The notes beneath the pieces are model-generated. The model was not told the origin of the DNA and did no database searches. It saw nothing but the letters and a program-made list of their open reading frames with translations. A DNA stretch of 64,000 nt. Origin: Dictyostelium discoideum. Its lineage: Eukaryota. Positions within the stretch are counted from its first letter, which is position 1, and every line of letters begins with the position of its first letter. The stretch lies in the NCBI GenBank assembly GCA_000004695.1, contig CM000150.2:3520001-3584000 (forward strand). The letters are read 5' to 3'. A program made the translations under genes and the position numbers. Positions 47,457 through 59,853 of this stretch are shown here, piece after piece.

Positions 47457-47461
<5 letters not shown>

Positions 47462-50400
47462 AGTAGTTGGTGTTATATGAGCAGTATGGTATGAAGTGTT
47501 CCGGGATGTTTATGGTCATGAGTTTCGAGTTCCAGTTGTGGCTGAATTTTTCGAGTCTTCTTTTTATTGATGCGGTCCGATTGATTGACTCTCGGTTATC
47601 AGTGCATCTTAGTTCTTGACGTAGTTGTTTTTCTACTATCTTTCTTGTTCTATCCCATTCGGCATCTCTCGCTTTTTTGATTTTATGAATTATTTGGTTC
47701 TCTGTTATTATTGTAGTGTTATCGTTGAATTTTATTTGATTTCTTCTGTACCATATCGATTCCATAATGGCTCCTATCAGATTTGATGAGAATGGTGTGA
47801 GTAGTTTTCCGAGAACTTTTTCGCTCCATGGACCGTGGTAAGTGTTGTTGGAGTCTTTACAGACCTTTTGATAGATTGAGTCGATATTCTGTTTTATTGA
47901 TTTGCATTCGAAGAAGATGTGCATAGACGATTCTTCTTCTTTACATGAGTGGCAATTCTCCCCATGGTGTTTTGGAAGTGCCTTGAGTAGATATCTCCAT
48001 GCTAAGTCTCTTCCTTTGATAGTTGTGATTGATCTGGCTTCTCTGAATGGTAGAATTGGGTGATTAATGTTCTTTTGAATCAGTTTTTGACCTGTTGTTG
48101 GCTGGTGTTTGTTCCATCCCTTGTATTTGATATCCATCATGTTTCTATAGATTACTTTTAATTTTTGTTTGTTTTCGTATTTGGGTTTGACTTGGTTTAG
48201 TTTGAGAGTTATTCGCTCTCTTGGGTGGTGCAACAACTTCCAGGCTTTCCAGCATTTGATGTGAATCCTTGATAGTGAGTTTTCTTTTTCCGACTTCCAG
48301 ACTTCCATATGTGGAGGGCAGTTCTGGTCGTCTTTTTCTCTGAGGTATTGTTCGTATATCCATGCTTTCTGGGCATTGGATCTGGTTGCCATATTCCAGA
48401 GTTCCAGGCCTCCAATTTCATAGTCTCTTCTGCTCCTTTCTTTTGAGATAGCCCACCTGTCCCCTTTGAATAACATGTTGGCATTAACGTTCTCCAGTTT
48501 CTTTATGTCATTTATTTCGTTGATGTATAGTTGGAATGTTAGTTGGGACAGCAGGTATGATTTGAGGATTGTGATTCTACCTTTTAGCGTTGATGACACG
48601 CTCGAATAACATTTTGTGAGGTTTTCCAGTTTGTTCACCGTATCATCTACTTTGCTTATTACACCTTTGCGGTTGAAGAAAAAGCCAAGATATCTTTCTT
48701 CTTCTTTCGCCCCAATTGTCTTATATTTGGTCTTTATCTTTGGGTTTTTAGTGATGCACACACATTTATTATCGTTTATTTTTGCTGCTGTGGCTTGGCA
48801 AAATTTTATAACTTTCATATCCATTTTATCTGCGTCATCTATGTTACTGGCTAGTGTGACTGTGTCGTCTGCATATTGTCCAATCTTCATCGAATTGTTC
48901 TGATTGAGTTTTATGCCTATTATGGTATTGTCTTTTCTTATTGATGTTGATAAGCATTCACATACTATAGCGAAGAGAGTTGGTGAAATTGGGTCGCCCT
49001 GTTTTGTACCTCTTCCTGCTCTGAAGGATTCAGAGAGTTGTCCATTTACCATGACCCTTATGTTGGTGTTCGTTAACATGCTTAGTATTGTGTTTGTTAT
49101 TTTCCGAGGGAACTTTAGATGGTTTAGAGTCCTTATTAACGCTTTATGAGATATTGAATCGAAGGCTTTTTCGAAGTCATAAAAGGTGATTATCGTGTTT
49201 CTATCACTTTTTTCCATTGCTAAATCCAAAGCTATAATGTTGTTGTGGAGTAGCCTTCCTGGTATAAAACCGTTCTGGTACTTTGAGATTATGTTTGGCA
49301 GGATTTTTAGTATTCTATTGTTGATTATTTTTGAGTAGATTTTGTAGTCTACGTTGAGTAACGTTATTGGTCTTCTGTTTGAGATTTCCAAGACATCCCC
49401 TTTACCTTTGTATATTGATGTAAGGATACCGTTCTTGAATTCTGTTGGAATTTCATTGTTTAAAAAGAAGTTGAATAGTTCTGTGAGGATTGGAATTAGT
49501 TTGTGTTGGTGGATTTTATAGAATGAAGATGTTATTCCATCTTCTCCTGGTGATTTACCTTCTGCTATCTTTTCTATTGCTAGCTTAACCTCATATTCTT
49601 CGATTCTGTCTTCCATCTCTGTTAATTTTTTTTTATCTATTGGTGGGTTCCAGGTGCTTAGAAGTTCTGTATGTGTTTCTTGGTCGCATTCTTTCTCTTT
49701 GAAGAGTGTCTCGTAATATTTTCTGAAGCAATCTGTTATTTCTTTTTGTTCTGTTTCGATTTCTCCATTGGATGGGTTCTTTATTCTGTGAATCTGGGAG
49801 CTCGAGTCTCTTTTTTTAAGAATAGATGTAAGGAGATTTGATGCTATTTCTTTATTGTTGATGTAGTTGATTGAGCTTTTGATCATTCTGTCTATTCTTT
49901 CTTCTTCTTGAAGTATTGTTATTTCGTTCGATATTGTTTCTTTTTCATATTTGTTTTTTGTTTTTGTGTGTTCATTTGCTAGATTTGATAGCGTTTTTTT
50001 TCTCTCTAGTATTCTTTTCTTTTCTGTTGTAATGCATTGTTTTTTTATTTTTTTTTTGAACTTAATCCAGTATTCCGTTATGTTAATGTTTTTTCTTTTG
50101 GTTTCCTGGTAGTGGTCGATTATTTTTTCTATCTTTTTTATTGTTTTATCTTCTTTAATTATTATTGAGTTCATTTTCCATAGGGGTGATTTGTATATTT
50201 TTGTGAAATTTGGTATTTTGAAATCCATCACTACTATGTTATGGTCTGATTTGTTTATTTTATCTATTATCTTGTACGAGTGATTGAGTTGGTGCATCTT
50301 TGTTGATAAGAATGTTCTATCGATTAGTTTATCTTTGAAGGTTGTTTTAGTTGTTGAATTTGGTAGTATTTCGGTGAGTCCTACTTCCATCATTAGGAAT

Positions 50401-50888
50401 TCTATTGTTTCATTTTCTGTGAATTTTCTCTTATCGGATGATCCATCTTTGAACTTGATTTTTGCATATTTGTTGATGTTAAAGTCACCAGTAACTATGT
50501 CTGCCTGTTCTAGATCTTCAAGGGAAATATTGTTTGAAAACCATCCTTTTCTTCTGTCATATGAGGCTGGTGCATAGATGCAAATTATGTTGATTTCCAT
50601 ATTGTTTAGAATTGCAGTAAATTTTAAGATTCTGCCTTCTTTTTCTTCCAAGTTTTTAATTTCTATTTGTTCTAGGTGATTTATTGCCATTACTCCTTTT
50701 CCTCTTGCTTCTTTTCCTTTTCCTCCTGTTGAGTAATGGTTTTTGATTTGCGCTAGATTTTGATCCTTTTTTAGATTTGTTTCTGTTAGTATTGATATAT
50801 CAGGTTTTATTAGGTTAATTGTATTTTTTGTCTGATTCATGCTTTTGATTGTTGAGCAACCTTGGCAATTCCAGGTCATTATTTTTAT

Positions 50889-50891
<3 letters not shown>
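47457..50891 (-). CDS. non-LTR retrotransposon ORF2: AP endonuclease + reverse transcriptase + C-terminal Cys/His motif
   Basis: The N-terminus MIKIMTWNCQGC...ILTETNL is an exo-endo-phosphatase. The RT blocks are RPITLLNVDYKIYSKII, FYDFEKAFDSISH and QYADDTVTLA. The HHGENCHSCKEEESSMHIFFEC motif follows. Confidence 0.85.
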
Positions 50892-50974
<83 letters not shown>

Positions 50975-50980
<6 letters not shown>

Positions 50981-51119
50981 AAATGAGACAGATGGAAGTA
51001 TGTCTTGGAGTACTTTGGGCAATTTGTCTCTTAGTGCTGCTTCCATTAGATCTGATTCTTCCTTTGTTATTTTAGTTGGAGTTTTGTAAGGTGTTGATAT
51101 TTCTTGGTGATTAGTTGTT
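50975..51119 (-). pseudogene. C-terminal 47 codons of TRE5-like ORF1, separated from the rest of ORF1 by the nested LTR element
   Basis: With the nested element and one TSD copy removed, 58117..59341 reads in frame into 51119..50975 and ends at TAA (rc of 50975-50977). Confidence 0.7.
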
Positions 51120-51509
51120 TGTTAGAGACTCAAAACTAAATTAATTTAAAGTTAGTATGAGCTCAACAACGTAACAAATTCGCGCATCTCCATGTAAAAA
51201 TATTTCATTTAATTTTTATTTTTATTTTTTAATTTTTTATTTTTTCAGTCAAAAAATAAAAAATTAAATTAAAAAAAATTAAATTAAATTAAAATTTAAA
51301 AAAATAATAAAAATTCTGATTTTTCGGTTTAGTTGGAATAACGCCCTTACTTTTAATTATCTCTTTTATGTATGTTTACTTTTATGATATTAGTCTTTCA
51401 CTCTTTCTATCCTTCATATTAAAAAACATTACTTTAAAGATTGGACTGTTTGATAAAAGATTGAACAAATGTGACAATGGATTGAAGATTAGTGTGAGTG
51501 ACTTTTACA
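51120..51509 (+). repeat. 5' LTR (390 bp)
   Basis: Identical to 57727..58116 over its full length by eye. It starts TGTTAGAG and ends TTTTACA. Confidence 0.85.
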
Positions 51510-51811
51510 CTTTTTTTTTTCTAATTTTAACATAAAACAAATACATTAAAACAAATAATTAGATACAATCCTTATATTTCGTATACAATGACACCTCATG
51601 ATGAAGAAGTCGACTCTTCAGATTAGAGGAATAACAGTAGTATTTAAAACAAAATAAAAATGCATTACAATGGCCCTTCTGTTTGCAAGATTAACGCTGT
51701 ACTGCTTAGGCGGTACAACGACACTTCCTACTCACATTGTAAACATGCATCTTTTATAAAGTAATATAAAACAAGATTGTATCAATTAATTTAATAATAA
51801 TGCTCAAATAC

Positions 51812-52085
51812 AAAGACACCACAATATAAATTATTAGTGGAATAACAGTTAAACAAAGACACCACAATATAAATTATTAGTGGAATAACAGTTAAATAAA
51901 GACACCACAATATAAATTATTAGTGGAATAACAGTTAAATAAAGACACCACAATATAAATTATTAGTGGAATAACAGTTATATTGATGCATTGTTATAAT
52001 TAAAATAATTTAAGATAATATTTATTATCAATTAAATAATATAAAGACACCACAATAAAAATATATTAGTGGAATAACAGTTAAC
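51812..52085 (+). repeat. tandem ~43-bp repeat (aaagacaccacaatataaattattagtggaataacagttaaa) x4 plus one degenerate copy in the LTR-element leader
   Basis: Seen directly, between the 5' LTR and the gag start. Confidence 0.9.
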
Positions 52086-52235
52086 ATATATTAATACTTA
52101 TATTTAATTATTTAATTAAAAATTAAATTAAATTAAATTAAATAAATTAAATTAAATTATATAATTAAATTATGTAAATTAAATAAAAAAATTAAATTAT
52201 AAAATTAAATTATATTTAATAAATTTTATATATAA

Positions 52236-53399
52236 TTGTTGGTGAAAGTCATGTCATCAACTACTACTCATTCAAAGAAAGCCATCCGTAAAGCCAAAGT
52301 GTCTTCCACCGCCAAACGTGCCGCTGAAGTGACAACTGCCTCCGATGATGCTATTACTGTTCAAGTAAAATCAAAAAAGACTCTTCGTCCCACTGAAGTT
52401 GATGATGAAATTTATTCAACTGAAAGCACTGATGTATCCGACGTCGAAGTCAGAGAGAAAGTGCCAAAGAAATCAAAGACCAATTCGATTGAAGCTAAAA
52501 CCATTGACGCTTTAAAAAATGCTGCCACTGCTGTCATCTTCATGAATCTCTTTACCATCCACTGCTCCCAGAATGGTGTTGAACCAACCTTGAAGACCAT
52601 TATGGACAATGGTGCTGCATCAAATGAATTATTTCAATTGCTTCAACCTACCCACAATGAATCAGTTAAGAACAACGATAAAATTGAAGGTGAAACATTA
52701 AAGAAGCTAATCCACCGTAACTTTAGATCCAAGACTTTGGTTCCATTCAAAACTGACTACGAAGCTGCCAACACTAAAGTAGTCGAAGCTATTAACCATC
52801 GTAACTGCTACTCAGCCCAAGATGTTATAAAAAACATCGAAGCCATTATGAGTTACCACAATGTAATTAATCCGGTGTATCTCATCCATGGTACTGCTGA
52901 AGTTCAATTAGAGTATCTAAGATCAATTTTAGATAATAATATCCTTGCTTTGTTAAAGATGGTCGTACCAGACTGGTTACAAACTGATGTTGCAATCAAA
53001 CTCAACACTCAAACCGATATCACCGAGTGTCGTGAAGCCATCACCGAGTTGGTTCTTAACAATGCTGATAAGTTCTCGAGAAGAAGACCTTCCGATTCTG
53101 CATCGAATACTGATGAGAAGTTTCTATTAAAAAAGAATCATGCTACTCCAAATCATAACTCTCATAACAGGAATTCCTTTGATGCTCAAGCTGATAAGAT
53201 TAGAGCTGCAATATTACCCGAAATAAGAAAAGACTCTAAGGTAGACCTCAAAAAGATAAGAAGCAGTTTCATCGTTTACCGTCAAAACAAAGGCTACTGT
53301 CTCAATTGTGGTAAATCAAATCACTCCACATCTACATGTAGAATTGATCCGGTCGATGCCAAAGCCAATCCAGGTCCATCAGCCAAAAAGCAACAATGA
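52236..53399 (+). CDS. retrotransposon Gag with CCHC zinc knuckle (CLNCGKSNHSTSTC)
   Basis: The ORF-track product is basic near its C-terminus and carries a CX2CX4HX4C knuckle. It ends at TGA 53397-53399. Confidence 0.8.
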   Translation: MLVKVMSSTTTHSKKAIRKAKVSSTAKRAAEVTTASDDAITVQVKSKKTLRPTEVDDEIYSTESTDVSDVEVREKVPKKSKTNSIEAKTIDALKNAATAVIFMNLFTIHCSQNGVEPTLKTIMDNGAASNELFQLLQPTHNESVKNNDKIEGETLKKLIHRNFRSKTLVPFKTDYEAANTKVVEAINHRNCYSAQDVIKNIEAIMSYHNVINPVYLIHGTAEVQLEYLRSILDNNILALLKMVVPDWLQTDVAIKLNTQTDITECREAITELVLNNADKFSRRRPSDSASNTDEKFLLKKNHATPNHNSHNRNSFDAQADKIRAAILPEIRKDSKVDLKKIRSSFIVYRQNKGYCLNCGKSNHSTSTCRIDPVDAKANPGPSAKKQQ

Positions 53400-56300
53400 C
53401 TCGATGAAGGTGATGAGTCCAAGTCAAAGATTTTAAATAAAAATTATAAAATTTCACAATATCATCACCTTGAGGATAATGATTACCCAGTGAACAAAGA
53501 TTCACTTTATACTCTTAACTCTTTTTATAATCAAAACATTGTTAAACAGTTACATCAACAAAGCCAGCAACATGATGTTCATAAAAACATCAACAAACTT
53601 AAAGAATACGTCAAAGACTCATATGGTATAAAACTAGTTCCTGATACAACCGTTCCAATTCCAAAAGCTGTTGAATCAGAGATGAAGTATAAACCACAGA
53701 AGATTGAATTTAATACTCCAACAGAGTTAACAAATGTTCAAGATAAAAACTATACTGTTAACATATTCAATCGTCCAAAGATATTAAATTCTAGTAAAGA
53801 ATTAATTAATGATGAAGAAGATGAATTGCTTTACACAATTAAATTCGATAAAGAAACAAACAAACCAATCATCTCATTATTACATAGTACTGGTACAAGT
53901 GATACTGCTCTCATTCCGACTCTAAAATGTTTAATCGTTCCAAACAGAGAAAACATGGATAAACCCAAGATTATAATTAACTCTCATTCCAAAGAAAAAC
54001 AATTCAAATTAATTCTCGATACTGGAAGTAATGTTAGTTTAATCAATAAGAGGTTGATTTCAAAAGATATGAAGAACCACGTTCACAAAACGAAAGCCAA
54101 GATTAACTTCCCGCTACTAGACGTCAAAGAAGAGTTTGTTGAACAAATCAATATACAAGTTAACAATGAAATTCATAACTTCTTTATTATAGAATTGGAT
54201 ATCATTGATGTACTTTTCGGTAATGATATCCTTAAGGACTCTATCATTAACCAAAAAGATAAAATAATCAAGTTGAATAACAGTACATACAAAATTAATT
54301 ATCAACAGTCGAATCAATTACATTGTAATGTAAAAGCTCCAAGAAAACATGTTACCGTATCCAATGATAATCAGTCACAGTCACATAATCTACTAGATGA
54401 TGATGAAGATATCAAAGAACAAGTTACAAAGTTTGTTGAAAGCATCCCATCACAACTTTGTGATATACTGGTTAAAACTAATCCAGAAGAAGAAGAGATA
54501 CAAGCAGTACGTGATTTCATTAATGATTCATTCGAAGATGTTATAGTAGATAAACTTCCTGATATTCCAGATCAGATTAACAATTCCAGAAGAGGTAATA
54601 TCATACATAATATCATAATAAAGAAAGATCAAGATGTTGAACCAACAAAGAAACAAATCTATTATTCAACAGATGATCATAAGAGACATGTCGAAGAAAT
54701 GGTTATCAAATTTATAGATTTAGGTATTATCAAAAGATCAGAATCAAATTACTCATCTCCAATCATGTTATTAAAGAAGAGAGATTCATGGTGTGTAGTC
54801 CACGACTATCGTCAACTAAATAAAGTCACTGTTAGAGACGATCATCCATTCACTCCGGTTGATAGTCTTTTAAATCAATGTAAAGATTCAAAGCTTTTCT
54901 CAAAGTTTGACATGATTATGGGTTATTTCCAAGTGTTAATTAATCCAGAACACGCAAAGTACACCGCTTTCATTACACATATTGGTAAATTTGAATATAC
55001 TAGAATGCCACAAGGTTTAGTCAACTCTCCATCCACATTCGCCAGATTGATGGTCGAAATATTTGGAAAAATCAAAAGTTTATTACAATACTTTGATGAT
55101 CTTTTGGTTCATTCAAAACTCGACTACATGGTACATTTCATTGAAATAATTAGAATGCTTCTATATTGTAGAAAGTACCTATTATTCATTTCAAGAGAAA
55201 AGAGTGAAATGTTAAAGACTGAAGTAGATTTCCTTGGTTTCCACATTCATAAAGATGGTATATCTCCAAGAGCTGCAAAGGTTAGAGCTATCTCTGAGTT
55301 ACCTGAACCAAGAAACGCCAAAGAAGCTGAAGCTGCATTAGGTCTTTTTGGATTCTTCAGGAGACACATTGAAAATTACGCTGAAAAAACCTATCACCTT
55401 TCCAAAGAATCAAAAGGAAAAAACAAGAAAACACTTTCTGATGAATCACTCAAAGAATTCAATAATCTAAAGAAAGAGTTTGAAGGTGAAAATATTGTCG
55501 CTATTCCAATTGAACAAGATAACTCCATACCAATAGATATCGAAAAGGTTAAAGCATCAACAGACATGCCAATCCATTCAGATAATAATAATCTAAACAA
55601 TGGTAGTTTTCACTTGTATTGTGATGTTAGTGATAAAGCATTATCAGGTGTATTATATCAAATTCAAGGTAATAAATTCAAAGTCATTTGGTTTCACAGT
55701 AGAAAACTTACTGATACTCAAAAGAGGTACAGCATAGGTGATAGAGAGTTCCTTTCAATCATTGATTCTCTAAAGAAGTTTCAACATTTATTAATTGGTA
55801 AAAAGGTTTCAATCTACACTGATCACCAAAATCTTACATATATTATCAATAAGTCAAACGATAAACCGTTCACAAAGAGACAAGATAATTATATGAAATA
55901 TATTAAAGAATTTGATTATGAATTAAGACATATAAGTGGTAAAAAGAATGGTATAGCTGATTTTTTATCTCGTAAATATGATAATTTCCAATGGGATGAA
56001 TCGTTTTTAAATAAAATTAAGGAAGAACAAATCAATTCTCAATGGCTATTAGAGATGAAAAAGAATCCAAATTTATGCATTGAAGAAATTAATGATATCT
56101 GTTACCTTAGTGAAGATGGGTTCAAGAAATTAATCATCATAGATAAAGAAACTATTCATACCGTCATTAGAGAATATCACGATACCAAATATAGTGGTCA
56201 TCACGCTTTAGATATCACATACAATAATATAAGACAAGATTACTATTTCAAAGAAATGTTTTCTATTATCAAGAGGTACATAAAGTCTTGTGCAACATGT

Positions 56301-57683
56301 CAATTGAACATTAACCGTAAAGATAATGGTATACTCCAAAGTTTAGAAATTCCCTTTGAAGTTTGGAGAGATATATCAATCGATTTCTTATCGCTACCAA
56401 AAACAATGTATGCAATAAACGGATTTACAGTTGAAGTCGATCAAGTTTGTGTCATTGTTTGTAGATTATCTAAAATGGTTCATATAGTTCCATGTCATAA
56501 GACAATAGATGCCCAACATACCGCTCAATTATTGTTGAATCATGTGTTCAGACTCCATGGTTATCCAAGAACAATCGTCTCCGATAGAGATCCAAGATTC
56601 CTTTCAGAAATATGGGAGAGATGGGCAAAGACGATGGATTCTAAACTCAAGATGACTGTGGCACACAGAGCACAAGCTGATGGTCAAACTGAAAGAATGA
56701 ATAGAGAAATTATTAGAATATTAACTAAAGCCTCAACAGAGTATGGGGAGAATTGGTCAGATATCATTCCACTTATTGAATTTGCAATGAACTCATCAAT
56801 GAGCAAGTCTACAAAGATGTCACCATTCCAAATCGTTTATGGATTCAATCCACCAACTCCCGTTAATCATTTCAATTCATTAACAAAGACTCGTATACCA
56901 ATGAGCAACATCAAAAAGATTGTCCGTGATAATATACTAGATGCTCAAATCAATGCTCAAAAGTATTACAACCGAGGTCGTGGTGATGTTATCTTCGTAG
57001 TCGGAGAAAAGGTGATGGTTAAAAGAAAATTCTTCCAAACTAATCTTTCAAAAGATCTAATCTCTCACAAACTTGAATCCAAGAATTGTGGACCATTCAT
57101 AATCACTGCCGTTCATGGTAATAATGTAACACTCGATTTAGTAGGTTATCCAAAGAAACACAATGTGTTCAACAAAGATCAAATCGTAAAACTATACGAG
57201 GACAGTGAGTGGTTAAGAGAAGAGATATCGATGCCGGAACCTGAGGAGATGGACGAAGCAAGTTACGAAGTTGAAAGTATTCTCAATCACGATAAAGTCA
57301 AAAAGATGTACCTAGTGAAGTTCAAAGGTTACCCAGAACCTGAATGGATCAAAGAAGTCGATACAGACTGTGAAGAGTTAGTCAGAGAGTATTGGAATAA
57401 CGTGCAGAAGAAACAATTGAACTCAAGAAGAGAAAGAGAGAATGTAACTACAGAAGCCGTTGAGCCAATTGTGTCACCTCCACTCTCCCAAGAAGTTCAA
57501 AGTTCTCAAACATTGCAACCAATTACTCCAAGACAACAAAACTCCATCTCAAATCAAAGAAACCAATCAAAGAAAAGAAAATCAAGAAATCAAAATACTT
57601 CAAGTGATGATGATGAACTTGATCTTAGTTTACAAATTAAAACAACTAGATCAGGAAGAAAAGTTACACCCAAGAGTTTATAG
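53400..57683 (+). CDS. retrotransposon Pol (aspartic protease LILDTGSNVSLIN, RT, RNase H, integrase HHCC + DDE, C-terminal chromodomain), same frame as gag behind a TGA
   Basis: RT motifs YFDDLLVHS; integrase motifs HHALDITYNNIRQDYYFKEMFSIIKRYIKSCATCQ and VSDRDPRFLSEIWERW; chromodomain YEVESILNHDKVKKMYLVKFKGYPEPEWIKE. No ATG follows the TGA. The first alternative start is GTG at 53490. Confidence 0.8.
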   Translation, partial: LDEGDESKSKILNKNYKISQYHHLEDNDYPVNKDSLYTLNSFYNQNIVKQLHQQSQQHDVHKNINKLKEYVKDSYGIKLVPDTTVPIPKAVESEMKYKPQKIEFNTPTELTNVQDKNYTVNIFNRPKILNSSKELINDEEDELLYTIKFDKETNKPIISLLHSTGTSDTALIPTLKCLIVPNRENMDKPKIIINSHSKEKQFKLILDTGSNVSLINKRLISKDMKNHVHKTKAKINFPLLDVKEEFVEQINIQVNNEIHNFFIIELDIIDVLFGNDILKDSIINQKDKIIKLNNSTYKINYQQSNQLHCNVKAPRKHVTVSNDNQSQSHNLLDDDEDIKEQVTKFVESIPSQLCDILVKTNPEEEEIQAVRDFINDSFEDVIVDKLPDIPDQINNSRRGNIIHNIIIKKDQDVEPTKKQIYYSTDDHKRHVEEMVIKFIDLGIIKRSESNYSSPIMLLKKRDSWCVVHDYRQLNKVTVRDDHPFTPVDSLLNQCKDSKLFSKFDMIMGYFQVLINPEHAKYTAFITHIGKFEYTRMPQGLVNSPSTFARLMVEIFGKIKSLLQYFDDLLVHSKLDYMVHFIEIIRMLLYCRKYLLFISREKSEMLKTEVDFLGFHIHKDGISPRAAKVRAISELPEPRNAKEAEAALGLFGFFRRHIENYAEKTYHLSKESKGKNKKTLSDESLKEFNNLKKEFEGENIVAIPIEQDNSIPIDIEKVKASTDMPIHSDNNNLNNGSFHLYCDVSDKALSGVLYQIQGNKFKVIWFHSRKLTDTQKRYSIGDREFLSIIDSLKKFQHLLIGKKVSIYTDHQNLTYIINKSNDKPFTKRQDNYMKYIKEFDYELRHISGKKNGIADFLSRKYDNFQWDESFLNKIKEEQINSQWLLEMKKNPNLCIEEINDICYLSEDGFKKLIIIDKETIHTVIREYHDTKYSGHHALDITYNNIRQDYYFKEMFSIIKRYIKSCATCQLNINRKDNGILQSLEIPFEVWRDISIDFLSLPKTMYAINGFTVEVDQVCVIVCRLSKMVHIVPCHKTIDAQHTAQLLLNHVFRLHGYPRTIVSDRDPRFLSEIWERWAKTMDSKLKMTVAHRAQADGQTERMNREIIRILTKASTEYGENWSDIIPLIEFAMNSSMSKSTKMSPFQIVYGFNPPTPVNHFNSLTKTRIPMSNIKKIVRDNILDAQINAQKYYNRGRGDVIFVVGEKVMVKRKFFQTNLSKDLISHKLESKNCGPFIITAVHGNNVTLDLVGYPKKHNVFNKDQIVKLYEDSEWLREEISMPEPEEMDEASYEVESILNHDKVKKMYLVKFKGYPEPEWIKEVDTDCEELVREYWNNVQKKQLNSRRERENVTTEAVEPIVSPPLSQEVQSSQTLQPITPRQQNSISNQRNQSKKRKSRNQNTSSDDDELDLSLQIKTTRSGRKVTPKSL

Positions 57684-57707
57684 TCCACCTCTGAGCCATA
57701 GCTAGCC

Positions 57708-57726
57708 TAAAGAAGGAAGGGGAAGG
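57708..57726 (+). promoter_or_regulatory. polypurine tract (AAAGAAGGAAGGGGAAGG) abutting the 3' LTR
   Basis: Seen directly, immediately 5' of the LTR start at 57727. Confidence 0.8.
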
Positions 57727-58116
57727 TGTTAGAGACTCAAAACTAAATTAATTTAAAGTTAGTATGAGCTCAACAACGTAACAAATTCGCGCATCTCCAT
57801 GTAAAAATATTTCATTTAATTTTTATTTTTATTTTTTAATTTTTTATTTTTTCAGTCAAAAAATAAAAAATTAAATTAAAAAAAATTAAATTAAATTAAA
57901 ATTTAAAAAAATAATAAAAATTCTGATTTTTCGGTTTAGTTGGAATAACGCCCTTACTTTTAATTATCTCTTTTATGTATGTTTACTTTTATGATATTAG
58001 TCTTTCACTCTTTCTATCCTTCATATTAAAAAACATTACTTTAAAGATTGGACTGTTTGATAAAAGATTGAACAAATGTGACAATGGATTGAAGATTAGT
58101 GTGAGTGACTTTTACA
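57727..58116 (+). repeat. 3' LTR (390 bp)
   Basis: A copy of 51120..51509. Confidence 0.85.
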
Positions 58117-59341
58117 TTGTTGGGTTTGGAGATGAGTTGGATCTTTTTCTTTTTACTGTCTCTGGGGTTGCTGGAGATTCTGGATTTTGGATAGGTGACA
58201 TTGTTTGTCTTTTTTTGATTGAGGCTAACCTTGGGGTTTCCTTCTTTTTTTGGTTATTTATTTTTTCTTCAAAAATTCTGTTCTCTTCTTCATTTTCGAA
58301 CATCTTTCTTACCACTTCTAATGCTTCTTCATCTTCAGTTAACTCCATTTTCCTTTTCTCTTTGCTGTCAACACTATATGTTACTGTTATTGGTGGGACA
58401 CGAAGTACTTTTCTCTTTTCAATATTGTTTATTGTGTTTGTCGTTTCTGTCGTTGTGGTTGTTGTAGTTGCTCTAATTGTTGTGGGTTTTTTATTTTCAA
58501 TTTCGTTTTCCTTTACTTTTTCGTTTTTGCTCTTGTCTTTGATGTTGTCATTATTGATTTCTTTATTATTTTCTTTTCTGTTTTCTATTTTGTTTTTGTT
58601 GTTATTTTTTGATTCGCTAGTGTTTTTATGATTGGATTCTTCTTTTGATTTTATGTTTATTCTTGTGTTTTCCTTTATCTCGGGATTTGGTAGTTCCGTG
58701 ATTTTTGAATTTTCTGAGATTTCGTCTTCGATTTCCTTATTTGTTTTTCTTTGATTTTTTGTTTCTTCTGTTGTAGTGAGGAATAGTATTGTTATGTGTT
58801 TACAATGTATTAGCTGGTCTTTGTGCTCTGGACTGATAATTGAGTTGAATGAGTGTATTATCAGGTTTTCACCTAAATTATCTAATTTGATTATTTCCAG
58901 TCCTTCTTCATGCAATGTTTTTTCTACTATGTCCATTGATTTTTCCCAGTTGAATGTTTTGAAGATCTTTTTTGGTTTTATTATTGCTCTGTGAACTCCT
59001 TTTAGTACTCCGTTGAAAACGTTAGAGTACTTGATTACTTGAGTTCTGCAGTCAGTGAGGATTTTGAATTTATTCTTACTTATTATTATCTTATCATCTC
59101 CTTGTAAATGAATTTCCAATTCTGCTTTTAAGTTGTTGGAAATCTCATCTGGGATATTGATCATGAATTTATATTGTTTTAGTTCAATTTGAGTGTGGTA
59201 TATTGCTTCGCTTATTTTATCAAGTGTTCTGTACGTATTTTTTAAATATTTGAACTTTGTTCTGAGTTCATTTGATTTCTTGATTTTATCTGCCAATGTT
59301 TCTGTTGATTCTGTCATTATTGTATTTGCCAATTTATTCAT
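58117..59341 (-). CDS. TRE5-like ORF1 (N-terminal 409 codons); truncated by the LTR-element insertion so the present frame runs 2 codons into LTR/TSD sequence before a stop
   Basis: The track ORF 58112..59341 is K/E/N/T-rich, typical of non-LTR ORF1. Its last two codons are encoded by the LTR end and TSD. Confidence 0.7.
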
Positions 59342-59419
59342 TTCTTTTTTTTTCTTTAAAATCTTTATTCGACTTTAAAAATTTAAAATTCTGGAAATTC
59401 CCTGAAAGAATGTTTTCGG

Positions 59420-59469
<50 letters not shown>

Positions 59470-59472
<3 letters not shown>

Positions 59473-59523
59473 TCTTTTTTTTATATGAAAAATGAAATAA
59501 TCAAATAAAAAAAGTGTTGTTGT
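59470..59523. repeat. 54-bp direct repeat copy 1 (aagtcttttttttatatgaaaaatgaaataatcaaataaaaaaagtgttgttgtt); copy 2 at 59669..59722
   Basis: Two identical copies 199 bp apart in the 5' region of the TRE5-like element (A-module-like duplication). Confidence 0.85.
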
Positions 59524-59770
59524 TGATGTTTTTTCTCTTACTGATTATTTTTTCCTTTTTTTTTCAATTTTGCTTCGCAAAATTTTCAAAAAAAAGAAAA
59601 AAATAAATTACAATAAAATAAAGAAATAAAGTAGTTTACTCTAAGTGTATTTTATTTTATTTTTTTTAAGTCTTTTTTTTATATGAAAAATGAAATAATC
59701 AAATAAAAAAAGTGTTGTTGTTCTCACAAAAACCGGATAAAGCAAATTTAAGTTGTATCTCATCAAAAGT

Positions 59771-59843
59771 GCCTGGATGGCTCAGTAGGCAGAGCGAGCG
59801 GCTGTTAACCGCTAGGTCCATGGTTCGATCCCATGTCTAGGCG
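59771..59843 (+). tRNA. tRNA-Asn (anticodon GTT), 73 nt
   Basis: Acceptor stem GCCTGGA/TCTAGGC with one G-U pair. D-arm GCTCAGTAGGCAGAGC. Anticodon stem-loop AGCGG-CTGTTAA-CCGCT with U33 and GTT at positions 34-36. The T-arm CATGG-TTCGATC-CCATG is the B box. A T-run follows. Confidence 0.9.
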
Positions 59844-59853
59844 ATTCTTTTTA
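59844..59853 (+). terminator. Pol III terminator T-run (ATTCTTTTT) after the tRNA
   Basis: Seen directly. Confidence 0.6.

Follow-up and report, generated by a model that had tools for sequence, protein, structure and literature searches.

The gag/pol junction of an intact, recent copy of the Dictyostelium discoideum retrotransposon Skipper-1 is interrupted by a single in-frame UGA, and Pol is probably made by readthrough of this codon. The copy lies in the 64,000-nt stretch of D. discoideum DNA analysed here (the window). Translation of the full-length RNA would start at the gag AUG, and at the UGA most ribosomes would terminate and release the 382-residue Gag, while in a minority a near-cognate tRNA would decode the UGA and translation would continue in the same frame, yielding a Gag-PR-RT-RH-IN-chromodomain fusion of ~1,810 residues. 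Readthrough would in this way set a low Pol:Gag ratio, and the Gag part of the fusion would bring Pol into the particle. The event is probably favoured by the UGA itself, by the flanking bases (AA on the 5' side, CU on the 3' side) and by a 10-bp stem 7 nt downstream. The gag-UGA-pol layout, though correctly recognised in a first, sequence-only reading of this DNA, has been known since 1998, when it was published and explained by stop-codon readthrough, so that the observation is not new; what is added here is modest new comparative detail. The comparative data provide, as far as we know, the first evolutionary support for translation past the stop and for maintenance of the TGA across species, and delimit a small candidate signal at 53394-53471. 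To our knowledge, programmed readthrough has scarcely been studied in D. discoideum, and we know of no experimental demonstration of Skipper readthrough.

The element is an intact copy of Skipper-1, a Ty3/gypsy chromovirus, occupying 51120-58116 (6,997 bp) between the two copies of a 5-bp target duplication (Table 1). It is identified by its size, which is near that of the published Dd-Skipper-1 consensus (6,998 bp, with an LTR of 390 bp; Spaller et al. 2016, PMC5006619), and by a Gag 100% identical to the AX4 protein named Gag. A polypyrimidine tract replaces the primer-binding site (TGG) after the 5' LTR, as described for Skipper-1 (Spaller 2016, PMC5006619), and the domain order in pol, PR-RT-RH-IN-Chromo, is also that of Skipper-1, the Pfam match to the chromodomain being weak (19.2 bits vs a cut-off of 25.1). 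At a paralogous, uninterrupted site in L002, the overlap is exactly the 5 nt TTGTT. Since the LTRs are 100% identical and the target duplication is perfect, the insertion is recent. No further Skipper copies were found within the 64,000-nt window.

Table 1. Features of the Skipper-1 copy and its gag/pol junction (positions in the window)
Feature	Positions	Strand	Evidence or remark
Target-site duplication TTGTT, left copy	51115..51119	+	TTGTT again at 58117-58121
5' LTR, 390 bp, TG...CA	51120..51509	+	100% identity to 57727-58116
Polypyrimidine tract CTTTTTTTTTTC, where tRNA primer-binding site expected	51510..51521	+	Sequence inspection
43-bp unit, four tandem copies, in 5' untranslated leader	51810..51980	+	Tandem Repeats Finder: 99% matches, score 328
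gag ORF, 382 codons + TGA	52251..53399	+	100% identical to D. discoideum AX4 'Gag' DDB_G0267358
Gag zinc knuckle CLNCGKSNHSTSTC, CX2CX4HX4C	53298..53339	+	Motif known for Skipper Gag (PMC5006619)
Stop-codon context CAA TGA CTC GAT	53394..53405	+	CAACAATGACTCG invariant in 7/7 D. discoideum-complex copies examined
In-frame TGA between gag and PR-pol, proposed readthrough codon	53397..53399	+	Frame analysis
PR-RT-RNaseH-IN-chromodomain ORF, 1,427 codons + TAG	53400..57683	+	99% identical to AX4 DDB_G0281535
94 codons without ATG, purifying selection	53400..53681	+	dN/dS 0.13-0.21
Candidate stem, 5' arm AAGGUGAUGA	53407..53416	+	7 nt past UGA; in minimum-energy and centroid folds
Candidate stem, 3' arm UCAUCACCUU	53462..53471	+	Duplex -13.5 kcal/mol
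Protease active-site motif LILDTGS	54009..54029	+	DTGS invariant in all three species
RVT_1	54774..55247	+	Pfam
RNase H	55605..55913	+	Pfam
Integrase_H2C2	56139..56309	+	Pfam
rve	56445..56669	+	Pfam
SH3_Tf2-1	57003..57188	+	Pfam
Chromo	57264..57398	+	Pfam
Polypurine tract AAGAAGGAAGGGGAAGG	57710..57726	+	Directly 5' of 3' LTR
3' LTR, 390 bp	57727..58116	+	Identical to 5' LTR
Target-site duplication TTGTT, right copy	58117..58121	+	

Gag and pol share one reading frame. As the sequence-only reading had stated, the gag ORF lies in frame 0 (position mod 3) and ends at the TGA at 53397-53399, with pol following in the same frame; the gag ATG (52251), the TGA and the downstream ORF all agree in this, and from 52236 to the TAG at 57681-83 (1,816 codons) the TGA is the sole stop in frame. 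Past it, the pol frame stays open for 1,427 codons, in which ~109 stops would be expected among random codons of the ORF's base composition; none is present (P ~1e-49), so the open frame is not due to chance. Between 53200 and 54100 the other two frames contain 18 (+1) and 41 (+2) stops. A frameshift between gag and pol is rejected, since the two share a frame and both other frames are closed, and the earlier preference for readthrough over frameshifting is supported by these closed frames, by the conservation of the TGA and by purifying selection directly past the stop. The same reading was right that the codons after the stop are CTC GAT GAA and that GTG at 53490 is the first alternative start (first of any ATG, GTG or TTG in frame), and was slightly off on two distances: the first in-frame ATG, which it placed deep in pol, is codon +95 (53682), in the spacer 5' of the protease, and LILDTGS, put at about 190 codons downstream, begins at codon +204 (54009).

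The TGA is conserved well beyond this copy. An independent D. discoideum assembly has it with an identical junction at three loci, one being the same locus and two being other insertions, and it is kept in L001-3, L011, L008, L007, L009, L006, L005, L012 and L004. Counting that of the window, it occurs in five D. discoideum-complex lineages, the four further ones being diverged, with gag identity down to 62%. A homologous TGA is found in two D. firmibasis copies (~38% identity over the alignable gag C-terminal stretch) and D. purpureum probably has one at the corresponding place, although its only available copy has a damaged gag (zinc-knuckle deletion), so that the frame relation is not provable there. 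At least 26 distinct clusters of Gag proteins terminate at this site. Used as the query for a metagenome scan, the alignment of the post-stop/protease region turned up no relatives. A sequencing error is excluded by the recurrence of the TGA in the independent assembly, where it is seen at other insertions too, and in all the diverged relatives that were examined. The wider notion that the TGA is a defect, whether an inactivating mutation or an assembly error, which leaves this copy unable to make Pol, can draw on the state of the family, most of whose genomic copies are degenerate (2 of the 60 in D. discoideum are full length; PMC5006619) and in which L008, L009 and L007 contain frameshifts or additional stops. 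It is nonetheless barely credible for a copy with identical LTRs, a perfect target duplication and no other stop in 1,816 codons, the more so as an identical TGA is found across independent assemblies, lineages and species and is replaced, by GGA, only in the decayed copy P0175, the sole stop loss among the copies examined.

Selection at the protein level continues directly past the TGA. Over codons +1 to +94, dN/dS is on a level with the values for gag (0.22-0.24) and PR-RT (0.13-0.19), and this region has protein-level homology in both D. firmibasis and D. purpureum. Because these codons contain no ATG and yet have a dN/dS like that of gag and pol, they appear to be translated, which supports readthrough. 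Production of Pol apart from Gag, by internal initiation (at AUG 53682, at a non-AUG codon or through an IRES) or from a pol-only RNA transcribed from a promoter in the junction, is unlikely. The AUG at codon +95, 5' of the protease, is retained in D. discoideum-complex lineages and would suit such a scheme, as would the treatment of ORF2 as a separate gene by annotators and the weak promoter within the gag-pol junction of Tca2 (PMC2194720); however, D. firmibasis and D. purpureum lack this AUG, and the 94 codons 5' of it are constrained as gag and pol are and conserved across species. Separate expression also leaves unexplained why every lineage keeps pol in exactly the frame of gag, with one TGA between them. 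Free Pol would, moreover, be without the Gag part that normally carries Pol into particles.

Splicing of a TGA-bearing intron from part of the transcripts, which would likewise join gag to pol in frame, is very improbable. Gene predictors remove 25-34 codons around the stop as an intron in other assemblies and in AX4 DDB_G0294144, and 96 formal in-frame GT..AG pairs span the TGA in the window, one of them with a reasonable donor (GTAAAT at 53311, with AG at 53409). The candidate introns are, however, 51-70% A+T, similar to the coding sequence (66%), whereas genuine Dictyostelium introns are much richer in A+T; the predicted introns vary from copy to copy, the best candidate would remove half the conserved zinc knuckle, and purifying selection on the protein acts on the supposed intron both 5' and 3' of the stop. 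The Skipper sequence of Leng et al. (1998) was reportedly derived mostly from cDNA, with the stop still present. Splicing is poorly supported, and the introns invented in several new D. discoideum assemblies and in one AX4 gene model should give way to a readthrough or two-ORF model.

Readthrough at the UGA would probably be helped by what surrounds it. A comparison of the stop context with known readthrough signals and a search for a stem-loop, both suggested by the sequence-only reading, returned an AA-UGA-CU that matches known leaky contexts, in which AA precedes the stop and UGA is followed by C or CU (bioRxiv 10.1101/2022.12.06.519325; PMC3159437), and a candidate stem at the spacing given above. 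The bases after UGA are CUC in the window, CUA in D. purpureum and UGC in D. firmibasis (UGA-U, not UGA-C). The arms of the candidate stem pair over 10 bp and enclose a 45-nt A/U-rich loop, making it the most stable uninterrupted helix (loop <=80 nt) in the 5,433-nt ORF; a helix this stable beginning 5-12 nt past a given point has a chance of ~0.003. The junction stem of lineage C is likewise the most stable uninterrupted helix, and in D. firmibasis an equivalent helix lies in a shifted register, 9 nt past the stop; the stem is absent in D. purpureum. The 3' arm does not vary among the four intact lineages, and the stem differs at one base alone, where L011 has G for A in the 5' arm and pairing is kept as G.U. 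The folding z-scores of the stem are modest (-1.9 to -2.5), and a covariation test found no compensatory double substitutions in the main stem. Its arms encode the conserved residues GD and YHH, the preferred codons of which would pair in part anyway. Seven consecutive codons at the 3' arm are invariant, while 38% of comparable codons vary overall, which is no more than suggestive; with four lineages, synonymous-site conservation in the stem arms does not reach statistical significance.

Other downstream structures fared less well. A pseudoknot was rejected, helices between the loop and downstream sequence being weak A/U pairings (-3.4 kcal/mol or weaker), none of them present in all four D. 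discoideum-complex lineages. Neither the junction nor the 7-kb element as a whole matched any Rfam family, gag/pol readthrough knots included, and for the element this held at E values up to 1. D. discoideum possesses selenoprotein machinery, for which UGA is the codon, and the UGA might be imagined to be read as selenocysteine via a SECIS element; with no SECIS among the Rfam results for the element and a post-stop stem whose 45-nt loop is without SECIS-like features, this is hardly conceivable.

The 1998 description of Skipper by Leng and colleagues reportedly placed an in-frame stop between gag and protease and proposed its suppression; it is also said to have included a separate pro ORF, a +1 frameshift to pol and a 'potential pseudoknot' past the stop. 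In contrast to that description, PR and RT-IN form one ORF here, and the junction has a long-range stem-loop and no convincing pseudoknot. The single PR-RT-IN ORF agrees with later two-ORF descriptions of Skipper (PMC5006619). Skipper (Leng et al. 1998) is listed among retroelements with programmed readthrough of an in-frame stop in a 2022 preprint (bioRxiv 10.1101/2022.12.06.519325), which bears out the statement of the sequence-only reading that such a mechanism had been proposed for Skipper; the element proves to be Skipper-1 itself. That reading had called the arrangement rare among Ty3/gypsy elements; uncommon it is, but not unique, since the fission-yeast chromoviruses Tj1, Tcry1 and Tosmo1-3 share the layout, with Gag and PR-RT-IN parted by a TGA in frame (the same preprint; Guo et al. 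2015). Their conserved GAA-TGA-CT, as given there, agrees with the CAA-TGA-CT of Skipper at 7 of 8 bases, and for Tj1 the stop is described as essential for transposition (bioRxiv 10.1101/2022.12.06.519325). In the accessible part of that source a downstream stem is not reported for these elements, whereas Skipper has a candidate stem, and the D. firmibasis Skipper breaks the CT rule stated there. In sequence these elements are distant from Skipper, the nearest fungal match to Skipper Pol being 29% identical.

Tca2 of Candida albicans, a Ty1/copia element where Skipper belongs to the Ty3/gypsy superfamily, is likewise a retrotransposon of a unicellular eukaryote with an in-frame gag-UGA-pol and a predicted downstream structure, in its case a pseudoknot, and gave no readthrough in reporters (Forbes et al. 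2007, PMC2194720). For Skipper, the data show the structure and identity of the element, the conservation of the TGA and protein-level selection just past it; that the UGA is bypassed by readthrough, how efficiently, with which amino acid and with what part, if any, played by the stem is what we infer from sequence, and Tca2 shows that such inference alone can mislead. Less likely than the type II signal considered below is that local sequence is insufficient in Skipper too and that the UGA is bypassed in a non-canonical manner. A further comparison is the gammaretrovirus MuLV (type III), which like Skipper has gag and pol in one frame with one stop, serving a low Gag-Pol:Gag ratio (PMC3159437), and which has an RNA structure ~8 nt past the stop, against 7 nt for the Skipper candidate stem. 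Skipper differs from type III in having UGA-C, not UAG-G, and in that neither a compact H-type pseudoknot nor an Rfam match was found.

The predicted junction signal resembles the alphavirus type more closely than a compact pseudoknot. Alphavirus-type signals (Beier and Grimm type II) combine UGA-CUA or UGA-CGG with an extended 3' stem-loop (Firth et al. 2011, PMC3159437), the alphavirus stimulators placing a stem of 11-12 bp, with a long loop (101 nt in VEEV), after a spacer of 7-9 nt (PMC3159437). Skipper is partly similar, in following UGA with C and in having a candidate stem of ~10 bp 7 nt downstream that closes a long, less conserved loop; it is unlike type II in its triplet, CUC in place of CUA or CGG (+4 C and +5 U match, and D. 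purpureum Skipper has CUA), in a loop of 45 nt as against 101 nt in VEEV, and in a stem without covariation. It is a tentative suggestion, with less than an even chance, that the Skipper signal is a type II module like that of alphaviruses, made up of UGA-CU and a long-range stem of 10 bp with a 45-nt loop, and not the compact pseudoknot reportedly suggested in 1998; on this view the D. discoideum complex would have kept the stem, and D. firmibasis would have formed it anew in another register. If the type II reading is true, Skipper would provide an amoebozoan retrotransposon example of extended-stem-loop readthrough stimulators.

The element at 51120-58116 (6,997 bp) is an intact Skipper-1, an identification that follows from its LTRs and target duplication, its domain order, its protein identity with AX4 and its fit to published Dd-Skipper-1. 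The downstream ORF carries RVT_1, RNase H, Integrase_H2C2, rve, a Tf2-type SH3 domain and a weakly matched chromodomain, in that order (Pfam), and is 99% identical to D. discoideum AX4 DDB_G0281535; Gag, with the zinc knuckle CLNCGKSNHSTSTC, is 100% identical to AX4 DDB_G0267358 (UniRef name: Gag). Published Dd-Skipper-1 measures 6,998 bp against 6,997 bp here, with LTRs of 390 bp in both; its Gag carries CX2CX4HX4C, a polypyrimidine tract stands in for the primer-binding site, and 2 of its 60 copies are full length (Spaller et al. 2016, PMC5006619). Downstream of the 5' LTR and ahead of gag, the leader holds a 43-bp unit, ACAAAGACACCACAATATAAATTATTAGTGGAATAACAGTTAA, in four nearly perfect tandem copies (51810-51980), with a diverged fifth near 52045-52085.

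Features of the Skipper-1 copy and of the element that hosts it (window positions)
Feature	Position	Strand	Remark
LTR pair, 390 bp each, direct	51120-51509 and 57727-58116	+	100% identical; TG start, CA end
Target duplication TTGTT	flanks both LTRs		sequence reading
Polypyrimidine run	directly after 5' LTR
Polypurine tract	directly before 3' LTR
gag ORF	ATG 52251 to TGA 53397-99	+	sequence reading
Host element, ORF1-like ORF	59341..58112	-
Host element, ORF2 with RVT_1 domain	50891..47457	-
tRNA-Asn(GUU) gene	59770-59844	+

The copy is nested in a minus-strand non-LTR retrotransposon (47457-51119 and 58117-59722), with its 5' end some 48 bp upstream of the tRNA gene, a placement typical of TRE5 elements. 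Being nested in a tRNA-adjacent element, this Skipper copy does not belong to a centromeric Skipper/DIRS cluster. L002, a locus from an independent D. discoideum assembly, holds an uninterrupted paralogous insertion site, the overlap being exactly the 5-bp duplication. Near its 5' end the host element carries AAGTCTTTTTTTTATATGAAAAATGAAATAATCAAATAAAAAAAGTGTTGTTGTT, about 55 bp long, twice (59470-59525 and 59669-59722), adjoining a long T run at 59426-59470.

The junction (53385-53495) reads ...AAA AAG CAA CAA TGA CTC GAT GAA GGT GAT GAG..., and single-frame translation of 52236-57683 yields 1,816 codons with this TGA as the only internal stop, as the sequence-only reading had claimed; random expectation over 1,427 codons at the ORF's composition is about 109 stops. 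The other two frames contain 18 and 41 stops in 53200-54100, so a -1 or +1 shift, likewise discounted beforehand, is unable to link gag to pol. The alternative start proposed at GTG 53490 coincides with the start of the next mechanically listed ORF, which ends at 57683 in the gag frame. Two details needed correction: the first in-frame ATG, placed deep in pol, is codon +95 after the TGA (53682), upstream of the protease, and LILDTGS, put about 190 codons downstream, starts at codon +204 (54009).

The junction is identical at three loci of the independent assembly, L003 (the same locus as the window copy) and the other insertions L001 and L002. Among diverged relatives, retrieved via their Gag or Pol proteins, it reads ...SAKKQQ TGA LDKGDESK in lineage B (L007, L009), ...SAKKQQ TGA LDEGGESK in lineage C (L011, L008), ...NSKKQQ TGA LVEGDESK in lineage D (L006, Gag identity 62%), ...FKRMTK TGA C(H/Q)ADDG in two D. 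firmibasis copies (L005, L012) and ...NSKKFKS TGA LSNPD in D. purpureum (L004), where a damaged zinc knuckle leaves the gag frame not confirmable. Wherever a lineage has intact copies, the frame is open from the TGA to the protease. This site is also where Gag terminates in at least 26 distinct clusters, and a sense codon (GGA) occurs in one protein only, P0175, from a decayed copy. Dictyostelium genes end mostly in TAA, TGA is the leakiest stop and the genome is A+T-rich; retention of TGA is in itself suggestive. A defect or sequencing error at the TGA was excluded and has virtually no probability: the LTRs are identical, nothing else interrupts the 1,816 codons of the frame, and the stop is conserved. 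Decoding of UGA as selenocysteine has just as negligible a chance, since an Rfam search of the element found no SECIS, nor any other match to junction or element.

Evidence for translation past the stop comes from dN/dS (Nei-Gojobori, window against L007 and L006), which is 0.13-0.21 for the ATG-less codons +1 to +94 and 0.09-0.30 for codons +1 to +30 alone, compared with 0.22-0.24 for the last 300 gag codons and 0.13-0.19 for PR-RT. The post-stop protein aligns in all three species, e.g. at YHH(L/I)ED and NKNINK(L/I)K, and the ATG at +95 is not kept in D. firmibasis or D. purpureum. Such selection and alignment upstream of a non-conserved ATG imply that ribosomes enter from upstream in the gag frame, the pattern expected of readthrough. 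Separate Pol synthesis, by its own initiation or from a promoter at the junction, has a parallel in a minor activity of this kind in the Candida albicans Ty1/copia element Tca2 (PMC2194720), but is unlikely, as it leaves unexplained both the selection on codons +1 to +94 and the strict upkeep of a single in-frame TGA, and its ATG is not conserved. Splicing out a short intron containing the TGA would also join gag to pol; gene predictors in other D. discoideum assemblies excise 25-34 codons around the stop to fuse the two, and 96 in-frame GT..AG pairs formally span it. However, all candidate introns are 51-70% A+T, like coding sequence, and the 'intron' is under protein-level selection. Because their boundaries vary from copy to copy, the predicted introns look like annotation artefacts, and splicing is very unlikely. 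Fused models lacking the TGA include P0002, P0003, P0004, P0012, P0014, P0016, P0023 and P0153, among others. Readthrough, the route to Pol favoured by the sequence-only reading, is thus supported by TGA conservation and post-stop constraint and is the probable bypass of the stop on this comparative evidence; confidence is kept from rising higher mainly by Tca2, whose gag-UGA-pol junction gave no readthrough in reporters.

Candidate signals lie on both sides of the stop. CAACAA-TGA-CTCG is unchanged in 7/7 D. discoideum-complex copies, and in other eukaryotes readthrough is favoured by AA ahead of a stop and by C or CU following UGA (10.1101/2022.12.06.519325; PMC3159437); fission-yeast chromoviruses keep GAA-TGA-CT at the gag/pol stop (10.1101/2022.12.06.519325). 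The D. purpureum context, UGA-CUA, is one of the two triplets, with UGA-CGG, that define type II readthrough (PMC3159437). D. firmibasis is the exception, with UGA-UGC (L005:4443-4448 and L012), T rather than C at +4; readthrough there, if operating, would lack the classical +4 C.

In minimum-energy and centroid folds alike, AAGGUGAUGA (53407-16) and UCAUCACCUU (53462-71) form a stem that closes an A/U-rich 45-nt loop and is predicted to be extendable by four pairs, back to the CUCG directly after the stop. Folding z-scores are modest (-1.9 to -2.5). Among the uninterrupted helices with a loop of at most 80 nt in the entire 5,433-nt ORF, just two reach -10 kcal/mol or better, the post-stop stem being best (-13.5); the chance of such a helix beginning 5-12 nt past a chosen point is about 0.003. 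The second most stable, GGAUAUCAUUG/UAAUGAUAUCC in the protease region (54197-54231; 11 bp, -12.1 kcal/mol), also occurs in lineage C (L011:2950-2984). In lineage C the post-stop stem likewise ranks first, with an A-to-G change that preserves pairing as G.U; D. firmibasis has a GAUGAUGGU/ACUAUCAUC helix in shifted register with a 9-nt spacer, eighth of 18 helices (P ~0.014), and folds and helix search found no comparable one in D. purpureum. No double compensatory change appears in the lineages compared, the invariant-codon run at the 3' arm falls short of significance across four lineages, and the arms encode GD and YHH, residues whose preferred codons are partly complementary anyway. A search for helices between loop and downstream sequence gave no convincing pseudoknot. 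In L009, a decayed lineage-B copy from D. cf. discoideum, the segment of about 45-55 nt between the arms (L009:2589-2644) has the opposite orientation to that in every other copy, which would fit a flip between the inverted-repeat arms GGTGATGA and TCATCACC.

The element is known Skipper, and readthrough is a proposal already made for it. Leng et al. 1998, working from cDNA, reportedly described gag followed by a single stop with a potential pseudoknot, a separate pro ORF, and a +1 frameshift from pro into pol. In the window copy, by contrast, protease and RT-IN form one continuous ORF (53400-57683), single-frame translation showing no sign of such a frameshift, which was probably clone-specific or a sequencing error; later papers also give Skipper two ORFs (e.g. 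Spaller et al. 2016 for Dd-Skipper-1, PMC5006619). The gag-TGA-pol observation is confirmed and its readthrough interpretation supported, as a finding already known; new are the conservation of the TGA across lineages, the dN/dS evidence for post-stop translation, a stem-loop description replacing the pseudoknot, and the artefact of predictors splicing out the stop. In the 2022 S. osmophilus genome paper, Leng et al. 1998 is cited for one of the retroelements with readthrough of an in-frame stop, in agreement with the proposal named in the sequence-only reading, and the same layout is listed for Tj1, Tcry1 and Tosmo1-3 (10.1101/2022.12.06.519325), so its supposed rarity among Ty3/gypsy elements is fair, though not absolute. 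In geometry the predicted Skipper stem appears nearest to the alphavirus-type extended stem-loop, with a loop of 45 nt against 101 nt in VEEV, whose structure has a spacer of 8-9 nt and a stem of 11-12 bp and raises readthrough about 10-fold (PMC3159437).
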